A model generated the notes under the pieces. It ran no database searches, was not told the DNA's origin, and was given only the letters and a program-made list of their open reading frames with translations. 64,000 nt of DNA from a bacterium (GTDB taxonomy: Bacteria > Bacillota > Clostridia > Lachnospirales > Lachnospiraceae): positions 40,242 through 104,241 of the forward strand of contig JAUNSO010000006.1 in the NCBI GenBank assembly GCA_030539165.1. The letters run 5' to 3'. This document shows positions 27,406 through 59,854 of this stretch, in pieces. The translations under genes were made by a program, and so were the position numbers. Numbering within the stretch: position 1 is the stretch's first letter; the number at the start of each line of letters is the position of its first letter.

Positions 27406-27641
27406 AGACAGATTGTATGATGGACAATTGGATTCTGTGAATATGAAGGATATTAGAACCACTTAGTATTCCGTACGCTTTCAGCAATGTCGGAACACGA
27501 TGTTCCGACAAGAATCAGCTGAGCCATGGATGGCGAATCTGATTCGGTTGCGTCCGAATTCAATATACCATCCGGAATACTTAGTGGTTCTTATATCCGA
27601 AATTCTGAATAGAATACAATTGTCCATCATACAATCTGTCT
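27406..27641 (+). repeat. 236-nt long imperfect inverted repeat / extended hairpin in the mgtC-family 5' region
   Basis: 27406-27438 pairs with 27609-27641 (33 positions, 1 mismatch, 1 G-T). After an internal loop, 27448-27473 pairs with 27573-27598 (26 positions, 2 mismatches). The central 99 nt contain two nested hairpins (27488-27510, 27512-27545). Confidence 0.85.
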
Positions 27642-29318: not shown

Positions 29319-29561
29319 TCAGCAGAAAGAATTTCCACCACAGCAGCAAAGTAACAAAAGAATGATGATAATACAACCGCAGCCGTCACCATCACCGCCG
29401 AATAATCCGGAAAGTCCGGAACCGCCGCCACAGCCACAGCTGTCGCCGCCATTGTTGCAAAGACAAAGAATCAGGATAATCCAAATAATAGAACCACAGC
29501 CACCGCTGTTATGACGTCCACAATCATTTGGGATACCGCATCCGCAATTTATTTCGCCCAT
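29319..29561 (-). CDS. Cys/Gly-rich 80-aa mini-protein with two hydrophobic segments
   Basis: Sequence MGEINCGCG...GGCGSIIWIILILCLCNNGGDSCGCGGGSG...DGCGCIIIILLLLCCCGGNSFC, an internally duplicated [G/C-rich]-[hydrophobic] module. A strong RBS (GGAGGA) lies 6 nt upstream of ATG 29561 on the minus strand. Confidence 0.65.
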   Translation of the reverse strand: MGEINCGCGIPNDCGRHNSGGCGSIIWIILILCLCNNGGDSCGCGGGSGLSGLFGGDGDGCGCIIIILLLLCCCGGNSFC

Positions 29562-29715
29562 GTGTCATCCTCCAATATTGGTTATGCTATATATTATGTG
29601 AGTTCATCAAAAGTGTTCAACCGGATTGGAAAACAAATTTAAGCAAGATTTTCAGGGTGGAGAGAAAAAAACTGAAATGCATAACTTCAAACTTCGATCA
29701 ATAATATCAGAATGA

Positions 29716-29744
29716 TTACAAAGTAAGGTCTCCTATGTTATAAT
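29716..29744 (+). promoter_or_regulatory. Extended -10 promoter for the RelA/SpoT-domain gene
   Basis: TTACAA (29716-29721), 17-nt spacer ending in TGT, TATAAT (29739-29744). Confidence 0.5.
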
Positions 29745-29787
29745 CAGAGAAAGGTGGAGTATAATAAGACAAAAGGAGGTTCGGATT

Positions 29788-30402
29788 GTGTCAGATATTT
29801 TGCATAGAGATGGATTGACAATAGATATGCTTAAGCAGCTATCTTACCAATCAGATTTAGGTATTAATTTAAAGAAAAATTTACATTATTTTGATAAAGA
29901 AGAACTATTTAAAGAATTGATAGATGTAAACAGTTGGTATGATTCATTTAATCAGCTACACGAATTAGCGTTGGATTACAGGATTAAAAGTGTACAATCA
30001 GCGATATTAAAATATGAGAGGTATTATCCAGATCGTCAGGCAAGAAAAGTATTTGATGACTTATTAGGATTCCGTTCGTTATGCGATAACTATGAGGATG
30101 TTCTGCAATTAAAAGAAATACCAGAGTTAAGAGTTGCGGATATGTCAAAAGGAAAAGCAAATGATGATGGGTACAGAGGAATTCATGTATATTTTCAGCT
30201 GGATGGAAACCATTACCCGATTGAAATACAATATAATACATATTATGATAGGCAGTTCAATAACTGGCTTCATAAATATGTATATAAGAAAAAATATGAT
30301 GATTCTGTAGGATATCGCTTGCGTGAATTATATGAGAGTGCTAAAATTCTATCAGAAAAAGATTTTAAGGAGGCGTTAGAACATGTGTTACTTGATTGCT
30401 AA
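29788..30402 (+). CDS. Stand-alone RelA/SpoT-domain (alarmone-synthetase fold) nucleotide pyrophosphotransferase, toxSAS-like
   Basis: Motif series YRIKSVQSAILKYER, DLLGFRSL, DGYRGIHVYF, PIEIQYNTYYDRQFNNWLHKYVYKK matches the RelA/SpoT synthetase core. No HD hydrolase, TGS or ACT domains; 204 aa. GTG start with AAAGGAGG upstream. Confidence 0.85.
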   Translation: MSDILHRDGLTIDMLKQLSYQSDLGINLKKNLHYFDKEELFKELIDVNSWYDSFNQLHELALDYRIKSVQSAILKYERYYPDRQARKVFDDLLGFRSLCDNYEDVLQLKEIPELRVADMSKGKANDDGYRGIHVYFQLDGNHYPIEIQYNTYYDRQFNNWLHKYVYKKKYDDSVGYRLRELYESAKILSEKDFKEALEHVLLDC

Positions 30403-30607
30403 GAGTATAGACGATGTTGGCTGTGTTGCTCTAAAAACAACACATGGAAAACATCTTTCAGATTTTAAAAGAAAAGTGGAAGCACAGGTTGGATATGAAA
30501 AGATTCAACTCGTTACAATTAGTAGACCATCTGCTTATGGAGAATATGAACCATATCATTTTGCTGATACAGAAGATGAATTTGAAAAAATGGTTGTGAA
30601 TATGTAA
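30383..30607 (+). CDS. 74-aa acidic-tailed protein overlapping the RelA/SpoT gene by 20 nt (candidate cognate partner/antitoxin)
   Basis: The ATG lies inside the upstream gene's 3' end, and the terminator follows directly. I recognise no family. Confidence 0.55.
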   Translation: MCYLIAKSIDDVGCVALKTTHGKHLSDFKRKVEAQVGYEKIQLVTISRPSAYGEYEPYHFADTEDEFEKMVVNM

Positions 30608-30626
30608 TTTATTAAGAAATGAAGAG

Positions 30627-30665
30627 AATCGGGATTACACGAATTTTTGTATCCCGATTTTTTAT
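30627..30665 (+). terminator. Intrinsic terminator of the two-gene module
   Basis: AATCGGGAT (30627-30635) pairs with ATCCCGATT (30651-30659), followed by TTTTTTATT. Confidence 0.8.
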
Positions 30666-30708
30666 TGCTTAAAAATCGAATAAATCTAACAAATGTATGC
30701 ACAGCGTA

Positions 30709-30738
30709 TTTACATTTTTAAATGTCTTGTGATATTAT
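30709..30738 (+). promoter_or_regulatory. Orphan extended -10 promoter
   Basis: TTTACA (30709-30714), 18-nt spacer ending in TGA, TATTAT (30733-30738). No convincing ORF follows for about 260 nt. Confidence 0.4.
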
Positions 30739-30744
30739 GAATGA

Positions 30745-30990
30745 CGTAAAGAAATCGGCGGACTCGTGGATGGAGAATACAAACGAGATTGGCATTTGAG
30801 AGAGAACGGTAGCTGAAATAAAGAATTACCAGAAACAGATTAAAAACAATGACATATACTATATTAGCTGTAGAAAGTGCTTGATATAAACTTTAAAGTC
30901 AAGATCACTGAATACAGTGATCGCGTTGCAGAAACCTGTGAGGTCTGCGACCGGGGGGAGAACCTGCGGGGGCTTCTCTTTTTTATTTTG
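30745..30990 (+). ncRNA. Candidate untranslated structured transcript or leader (unclassified)
   Basis: Lies between the orphan promoter and a T-run (30979-30989) that is preceded by a weak GGGGAGAA/TTCTCTTT hairpin. It contains a perfect 8-bp hairpin (30903-30922) and a GCAGA..TCTGC helix (30938-30958). Confidence 0.3.
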
Positions 30991-31004
30991 AGGAGATATT
31001 GTGC

Positions 31005-31109
31005 ATGTTAAGCCTCAAGAAACATGATAGTATATCAGAACAGGAATTATATGAAAAAATGGGTTTCCCGGAAAACTGGAGGAAGATAACCCGATACAGG
31101 AAACAGTAA
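31005..31109 (+). CDS. Possible 34-aa small ORF (MLSLKKHDSISEQELYEKMGFPENWRKITRYRKQ)
   Basis: GAGGAG lies 8 nt upstream of ATG 31005. Too short to assess coding potential. Confidence 0.3.
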   Translation: MLSLKKHDSISEQELYEKMGFPENWRKITRYRKQ

Positions 31110-31177
31110 AATGGTTGGAATCAAGCCTTCAAGTCTTCTCAAAGATTTGGAGGTTTTCTTATATTCATTTATCCAAA

Positions 31178-31207
31178 TTAGAAACATTAGAAACAAAATT
31201 AGAAACA
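31178..31207 (+). promoter_or_regulatory. Three direct repeats of TTAGAAACA just upstream of the REC/sortase operon promoter
   Basis: TTAGAAACA at 31178-31186, 31187-31195 and 31199-31207. The last repeat ends 18 nt before the -35 hexamer. Confidence 0.5.
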
Positions 31208-31224: not shown

Positions 31225-31252
31225 TTGAAATTTTGTCAAGATATAGTACAAT
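31225..31252 (+). promoter_or_regulatory. Sigma-A-like promoter for the REC/sortase/LRR operon
   Basis: TTGAAA (31225-31230), 16-nt spacer, TACAAT (31247-31252). Confidence 0.45.
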
Positions 31253-59657: not shown

Positions 59658-59854
59658 TAGATTTCCTGGGGTGTTCGATAATTCTTGTATTTTGAACCTA
59701 CATTTACTTTAAACGGGATTCCTATATTACCGTCTCCTATGTCAGGCCTCATTTGCAGTGGAAGGCAGAAGAGCGGCTGCGGTCACCCACCTAGCATTAG
59801 CTAGGAGTCAAAAAACAAGAACCGGCATCTCTGGGATATTCACAAAAGAGGAAA
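59658..59854 (+). ncRNA. Candidate structured RNA / cis-regulatory leader upstream of the SpoIID-domain gene (unclassified)
   Basis: Long-range helices: 59661-59666 pairs with 59848-59853, and 59681-59694 pairs with 59807-59820 (14 positions, 1 mismatch). Local hairpin at 59789-59804. Followed by a terminator. Confidence 0.3.

Follow-up and report, generated by a model that had tools for sequence, protein, structure and literature searches.

A gene pair of probable FaRel2/ATfaRel2 type within an AT-rich insert of a Lachnospiraceae genome

The toxin-antitoxin (TA) system FaRel2:ATfaRel2 of Coprobacillus sp. D7 (= Thomasclavelia ramosa; PDB 8PU1-8PU4) has been described in a series of studies: PMC7229694 (Jimmy 2020), bioRxiv 10.1101/2021.04.30.441581 (Kurata 2021), PMC11782079 (Dominguez-Molina 2024), and PMC11559606 (Kurata 2024). 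Toxicity, neutralisation, and complex formation have been demonstrated for this type system (PMC7229694; PMC11782079), and its toxin pyrophosphorylates tRNA-Gly/Thr (PMC11559606). We compare it here with two overlapping genes, coding for proteins of 204 and 74 amino acids (aa), that lie in a stretch of 64,000 nucleotides (nt) from a Lachnospiraceae genome (contig JAUNSO010000006.1), hereafter the window. Judging by homology, the pair is very probably a toxSAS TA module of the FaRel2/ATfaRel2 type with a mechanism as in the Coprobacillus sp. D7 system. It adds a new member to a family already described in published work on its genetics, biochemistry, and structures.

The window pair resembles the type system in its gene order, with the toxin first and the antitoxin downstream as in the Coprobacillus operon, in its domains (RelA_SpoT and DUF6718), in the lengths of its products (204 vs ~203 aa and 74 vs ~73 aa), and in a toxin alignment that is free of gaps; the catalytic, ATP-binding, tRNA-patch, YxxY, and tetramer-interface residues are all common to both. 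It differs in that its proteins are 54% and 53% identical to their counterparts, the N-terminal region of the toxin being the most diverged, and in that its antitoxin carries an additional residue behind position 39 and ends in another acidic tail. Its host is a gut member of the Lachnospiraceae and its genes overlap by 20 nt.

Other described systems share part of these features. CapRel-SJ46 (PDB 7ZTB) pyrophosphorylates the tRNA CCA end, a chemistry that the window pair would share by analogy, and its ATP donor site is likewise blocked by a pseudo-zinc-finger domain that carries a YxxY motif (PMC11782079). However, CapRel-SJ46 consists of one chain that is neutralised in cis and that a phage capsid protein activates, whereas the window proteins are separate and would act in trans. 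In the PDB searches CapRel-SJ46 showed no sequence similarity to the window toxin, and a CapRel-type fusion was rejected for the window, where the toxin stops at residue 204 and the antitoxin is a separate, overlapping open reading frame (ORF) in a different frame. In FaRel/ATfaRel/AT2faRel and Tas1, too, a small operon codes for a toxic RelA/SpoT-domain enzyme of the stand-alone kind, but these systems have three genes, with a SAH hydrolase and a Tis1-type antitoxin, and their product is (pp)pApp, made while ATP is depleted; such partner genes are absent at the window locus. The RelQ/RelP enzymes (B. subtilis YjbM, PDB 5DEC) have the core RelA/SpoT synthetase fold and the donor-ATP motifs in common with the window toxin. 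They differ in lacking the ordered N-terminal tRNA-binding helices, in forming homotetramers via a C-terminal helix bundle, and in being core genes that make (p)ppGpp and have no antitoxin; their similarity to the toxin is marginal.

Both window proteins were compared by sequence search with all PDB chains. The 204-aa protein aligned over residues 4-204 with FaRel2 of Coprobacillus sp. D7 (8PU1_B/8PU3_C/8PU4_A; E 4e-69; 108/201 positions identical), and the 74-aa protein with ATfaRel2 (8PU1_A/8PU2/8PU3_A; E 2e-19; 36/68 identical). The latter is a full-length member of Pfam DUF6718 (PF20476; E 9e-34, 116 bits), a family to which the Coprobacillus ATfaRel2 itself belongs (100.8 bits). For the toxin, Pfam gave RelA_SpoT alone (30 bits, residues 65-169), as expected from an initial annotation of this DNA that had seen neither hydrolase nor regulatory domain in it, while NCBIfam contained no family for either protein. 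For the subfamily placement, a profile built from 21 diverse homologues was run against the structures of RelA/SpoT homologues (RSH). It scored 302 bits on FaRel2 vs 27 bits on RelQ/YjbM and matched no further RelA/SpoT structure, Tas1 and FaRel both failing to appear at E<=1. Over the sequence and profile searches together, the scores were 236-302 bits for FaRel2 vs 16-27 bits for RelQ. The profile scores and the lack of any other matching RSH structure thus settled the subfamily placement. The initial annotation had proposed a toxSAS-like TA pair, leaving subfamily and partner open; the toxin turns out to be a FaRel2 orthologue that does not cluster with RelQ/RelP, and the 74-aa partner an ATfaRel2 homologue within DUF6718.

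We took the roles of individual residues from the structures (PMC11782079) and from the work on tRNA specificity (PMC11559606), the numbering of the window toxin being that of FaRel2 plus one. Every residue mutagenised or contacting a ligand in these two studies is conserved in the window proteins. In the toxin, the triphosphate-binding residues R65, K67, S71, K75, and R78 correspond to FaRel2 R64, K66, S70, K74, and R77, the catalytic, Mg2+-binding D91 to D90, and G94, R96, and the adenine-site residues E146 and Q148 to G93, R95, E145, and Q147. Y129 corresponds to the G-loop acceptor tyrosine Y128, whose replacement by Ala or Phe detoxifies FaRel2 (PMC11782079, PMC11559606). The tRNA-binding basic pair K29/K30 corresponds to K28/R29. 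In the antitoxin, the plug Y52-G-E-Y55 matches Y51xxY54 of ATfaRel2, the scaffold residues V44, I46, and A51 match V43, I45, and A50, and the secondary interface (R48, Y58, F60) matches R47, Y57, and F59. Conservation was then read from 71 toxin and 76 antitoxin homologues drawn from 80 genome loci. The functional positions of the toxin were invariant or nearly so (K29 invariant, position 30 being K or R in 65/71), and the plug, scaffold, and interface residues of the antitoxin were kept in 70-76 of the 76 sequences. Identity to FaRel2 was highest, at 71%, in the catalytic core (residues 126-170), so that the chemistry is probably conserved with that of the type toxin.

The two genes and the signals around them are the following:

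29715-29744, + strand: promoter-like site of the operon, ATTACA-18-TATAAT with a TG extension (consensus scan, 10/12 matches)
29773-29779, + strand: ribosome-binding site AAGGAGG, 8 nt 5' of the toxin GTG (read from the sequence)
29788-30402, + strand: putative toxin gene, faRel2 orthologue, GTG start, 204 aa, predicted stand-alone toxSYNTH RelA/SpoT-type pyrophosphokinase (ORF, Pfam, and PDB match)
30383-30607, + strand: putative antitoxin gene, aTfaRel2 orthologue, ATG start, 74 aa, DUF6718, predicted pseudo-zinc-finger domain (Pfam and PDB match)
30623-30665, + strand: intrinsic terminator, a 16-bp hairpin with one bulge (13 + 3 bp), then a T-run (RNA fold)

These coordinates reproduce the two ORFs and the 20-nt overlap of the initial annotation, and its motif list could be found entirely in the translations. 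The toxin contains R65-IKS-x2-S71-x3-K75, D91-x2-G94-x-R96, G128-Y-R-G-x-H133, E146-x-Q148, and H162-x3-Y166-K167, and the 74-aa protein ends in FADTEDEFEKMVVNM. The extended -10 promoter noted earlier was recovered by the scan as well, although such sites are frequent in the AT-rich DNA of the window (17 found vs 9.4 expected). The DNA homology to two other FaRel2 loci (L002, L003) starts at ~29735 and thus takes in the -10 element. The terminator, already described as strong, had a free energy of -17.7 kcal/mol for the hairpin (30623-30663) and its T-run (z = -4.4), with 0/200 shuffles as good; a simple terminator scan missed it because of the bulge.

Toxin relatives are numerous in the protein database (1714, mostly from Lachnospiraceae, the best 86% identical), and an identical toxin was present on 13 assembled contigs from several samples, always in the same context. 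The set of 80 loci mentioned above was taken from contigs of one genome per species, and 77 of them had sequence downstream of the toxin. In 76/77, tblastn located an antitoxin homologue directly 3' of the toxin, starting 7-16 nt before the aligned toxin end, or, in L070 only, 2 nt after it. The 77th locus (L080, C. butyricum) had at first the appearance of an exception without antitoxin. We rejected this as an artefact of tblastn sensitivity, as ORF and Pfam searches revealed a diverged 74-aa DUF6718 ORF overlapping the toxin end. The partner is thus conserved in 77/77 loci, which answers the question, raised with the initial annotation, of whether the 74-aa ORF is kept beside homologues of the enzyme. 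Two FaRel2/ATfaRel2 modules were observed in a single metagenome-assembled genome (MAG), Hespellia sp. STD2_134, on different contigs (L002 10001-10754 and L003 3285-4101), with toxins 90% and 89% identical to that of the window; they could be paralogous copies or reflect a strain mixture in the bin.

The gene pair stands out by its base composition. At 31.7% GC it is the lowest-GC 820-bp window of the whole 64 kb, ~4 sd below the mean of 44.2% (sd 3.1%). The initial annotation had compared hand counts of 60-nt lines, and the contrast that it saw is borne out and even stronger than stated, with 10-24 G+C per line in the module vs 24-36 in the REC gene, although its exact counts of 15 and 13 hinge on the framing of the lines. 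The module had a lower GC content than its flanks in 68/70 loci with enough flanking sequence, the mean difference being 8.4 points. Alignments to syntenic relatives, found via homologues that share 65-75% identity with the neighbouring REC-domain protein, delimited a larger segment:

29621-31205, no strand: AT-rich insert with the module, ~1.58 kb, 33.1% GC (breakpoints from alignments to syntenic relatives)

This insert sits between the divergent promoters of a gene for an 80-aa protein (- strand) and of the REC-domain gene (+ strand). Its left breakpoint, at ~29620, falls on the -35 element of the 80-aa gene's divergent promoter, and the right one, at ~31206, lies just 5' of the conserved REC promoter TTGAAA-16-TACAAT (31225-31252). 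The relatives L086, L088/L089, and L092/L093 exhibit the same order, leuS-mgtC-91aa-~160aa-80aa-REC-sortase and a large surface protein, the three small genes being on the minus strand, but they are without the module and have a spacer of 160-220 bp at the insert site. Variable presence of the module, which the initial annotation had suggested checking in related genomes, is thus illustrated by an empty site in L086, L088, and L092.

Similarity between the window DNA and 79/80 of the loci was limited to a cassette of ~29735-30741, the flanks being unrelated. Relatives occur on nine plasmids, of C. perfringens, Clostridioides (C. difficile), C. butyricum, and Cetobacterium, and on three IMG/VR viral contigs. 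In one of the latter (L094 5523-17189; IMG/VR UViG 2588253903_000004, same organism as L060) the module lies at a mobile-element junction, with an endolysin (amidase, glucosaminidase, and SH3 domains) and a Tn916-type integrase on its 5' side and an IS110-family transposase and a second integrase on its 3' side. Because the pair has the lowest GC content, shares only the cassette with other loci, is absent from syntenic relatives, and has homologues in plasmid and integrase contexts, a horizontal acquisition of the module, as the initial annotation had already suggested, is supported.

In its 3' part, between the terminator of the TA pair and the promoter of the REC gene, the insert includes a 472-bp AT-rich segment (30724-31195). 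The closest relative, L001, whose toxin is 98% identical and whose flanks are the same, lacks this segment; the same-strain contigs L081-L084 have it with 100% identity, and the other fetched loci have no homologue of it. Its features are a promoter-like TG-extended site (30709-30738), a stretch of moderate structure (30744-30995, z -2.7), an ORF that may code for 34 aa (31005-31109; MLSLKKHDSISEQELYEKMGFPENWRKITRYRKQ) and has the ribosome-binding site GAGGAG, and a hairpin resembling a terminator (31123-31156). At a permissive threshold, Rfam gave only a chance-level GAIT match for the module and its surroundings, and we therefore rejected a known riboswitch or small RNA for the AT-rich stretch after the terminator. 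That this strain-specific segment encodes an unrecognised peptide or small RNA associated with the module is a smaller possibility.

Transferred from the type system, the mechanism would be as follows. ATP would be taken up in the donor site of the toxin (R65, K67, S71, K75, R78, D91-Mg2+, R96, E146, Q148), while an uncharged tRNA would be held by the basic N-terminal patch (K29, K30) and the CCA groove. Pyrophosphate would then be moved to the 3'-CCA end of the tRNA via the G-loop Y129, which would prevent aminoacylation and halt translation. The antitoxin, made from the overlapping 3' cistron, would dock to the toxin by beta-sheet extension, and its Y52-x-x-Y55 3-10 helix would enter the adenine pocket, excluding ATP and leaving tRNA binding unblocked. 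The product would be an inactive 2:2 heterotetramer held by R48, Y58, F60, and the toxin C-terminus. For the window pair we infer toxicity, neutralisation, the tRNA substrate and its specificity, and a toxin-freeing trigger from these parallels. The type antitoxin ATfaRel2 is in addition a DNA binder, with an affinity of ~0.5 µM for its own upstream region (PMC10565793), and autoregulation of the module by its antitoxin is therefore possible.

Two other identities of the enzyme have to be set against this one. That the 204-aa protein is a housekeeping (p)ppGpp synthetase of the RelQ/RelP kind, the 74-aa ORF being incidental, is vanishingly improbable in our view; the RelA_SpoT domain with the shared nucleotide-binding motifs and the rank of RelQ/YjbM as next-best solved structure agree with it, but its 16-27 bits are dwarfed by those of FaRel2, the partner that accompanies the toxin at all 77 loci is homologous to a solved antitoxin, and the gene is of foreign base composition and missing in the syntenic relatives. 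We consider this possibility effectively refuted in silico. Very improbable, too, is a toxin of the FaRel/Tas1 type that makes (pp)pApp and depletes ATP instead of modifying tRNA, even though the toxSYNTH fold is the same and FaRel2 itself was at first taken as a toxic-alarmone maker (PMC7229694). According to PMC11782079, (pp)pApp producers are neutralised either by a SAH hydrolase or by Tis1-type antitoxins that occlude the acceptor site. The window locus encodes neither, DUF6718 being the only partner and the neighbours being an 80-aa Cys/Gly-rich ORF and the REC-domain gene, whereas the partner is by sequence of the ATP-site-blocking pseudo-zinc-finger type. The failure to match Tas1 and FaRel structures and the conserved K29/K30 patch also contradict a (pp)pApp-making enzyme. 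The FaRel2/ATfaRel2 reading has weak sides of its own. Support for this orthologue is at the sequence level; its RelA_SpoT score is barely over the cut-off (30 vs 27 bits), a value similar to that of the type FaRel2 protein (35 bits). Residues 4-60, at 44%, are the least similar to FaRel2, and R29 is replaced by K30, in the region that anchors the tRNA in FaRel2, where K28/R29 bind the acceptor stem (PMC11559606); an overall identity of 54% may leave room for another tRNA specificity. The difference between core and N-terminal identity (71% vs 44%) thus suggests that the chemistry has probably been kept but maybe not the choice of tRNA. As for the insertion, its boundaries are without inverted repeat or target duplication, only short chance-level matches being detected, and the window contains no homologues of the integrases, IS110 transposase, and serine recombinase seen beside relatives; by this crude proxy, such homologues are near 5/80 loci only.

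With the FaRel2/ATfaRel2 identity retained, the question of the biological role can be addressed. The initial annotation had considered a TA or anti-phage candidate, of which the TA part stood and the anti-phage part is unproven. In an abortive-infection system, a phage would free or activate the toxin, turning translation off and blocking phage production. This is compatible with tRNA pyrophosphorylation, and for the window module phage defence is plausible by analogy, though we hold it to be doubtful. CapRel-SJ46 and PhRel:ATphRel, which are translation-targeting toxSAS, defend against phages (as cited in PMC11559606), the variable presence, AT-richness, and mobility of the module are usual for defence genes, and three relatives are on IMG/VR contigs, one of them directly after an endolysin and an integrase. 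PADLOC gave a partial, weak match of the toxin to the candidate family PDC-S33 (E 3.5e-6, 24.7 bits), and none for the antitoxin. On the other hand, E. coli carrying Coprobacillus FaRel2:ATfaRel2 was not protected from the BASEL collection of phages (PMC11559606), no homologue was found among 50,697 GenBank phage records, the window locus has housekeeping and cell-surface genes around it and not a defence island or prophage, and there is no known sensor or trigger in the FaRel2 subfamily. The module could instead be a selfish cassette for the addiction or stabilisation of plasmids and integrative elements, left here as a chromosomal remnant without benefit to the host. This is at least as likely as phage defence, if still somewhat short of an even chance. 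It is consistent with homologues on nine plasmids and beside integrases and an IS110 transposase, with the two diverged copies in the Hespellia MAG, and with the 1-kb cassette being all that is common between hosts. However, the window copy has no adjoining mobile-element genes to stabilise, and its two intact genes, complete functional residues, and identical protein on 13 contigs suggest maintenance, with the caveat that a TA pair can maintain itself. Abortive infection by the FaRel2-type module in its native host, combined with a tRNA specificity other than tRNA-Gly/Thr through the diverged N-terminal reader, is decidedly unlikely; if true, it would be the first defence shown for the FaRel2 subfamily and a case of the proposed switching of tRNA specificity.

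Several other features of the window were observed. A full-length TwoAYGGAY RNA (27441-27605, + strand; Rfam RF01731, 127 bits) is located in the leuS-mgtC spacer, which has 391 bp in the window strain vs 31-74 bp in L086, L088, and L092, so that this RNA also looks like a lineage-specific insertion. The 80-aa Cys/Gly-rich ORF directly 5' of the insert (29319-29561, - strand; MGEINCGCG...CCCGGNSFC) has a hydrophobic centre. Every syntenic relative has this gene too, at 75-80 aa, as well as the 91-aa and ~160-aa genes that lie 3' of it on the minus strand; Pfam gave no annotation for these three. A 6S RNA gene (59660-59841, + strand, 68 bits) and a tRNA gene interrupted by the window start (1-58, - strand) complete the list.

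Public records call the toxin "hypothetical protein" or "putative GTP pyrophosphokinase" and the partner "DUF6718 family protein," and RefSeq plasmid annotations likewise have a "DUF6718 family protein" next to "hypothetical protein" toxins. The Pfam label of PF20476 is still "unknown function" although the family contains ATfaRel2, and the term DUF6718 did not occur in a literature search over ~8 million papers. The finding raises no new question. The comparison with the empty site provides a neat case of a bare ~1-kb TA cassette between divergent promoters, without a recognisable recombinase. Its main value lies in annotation, as DUF6718 includes the structurally solved antitoxin ATfaRel2; through this link, hundreds of loci in Lachnospiraceae, Clostridium, and Clostridioides, plasmid-borne ones included, could be annotated as TA modules of the FaRel2 type.

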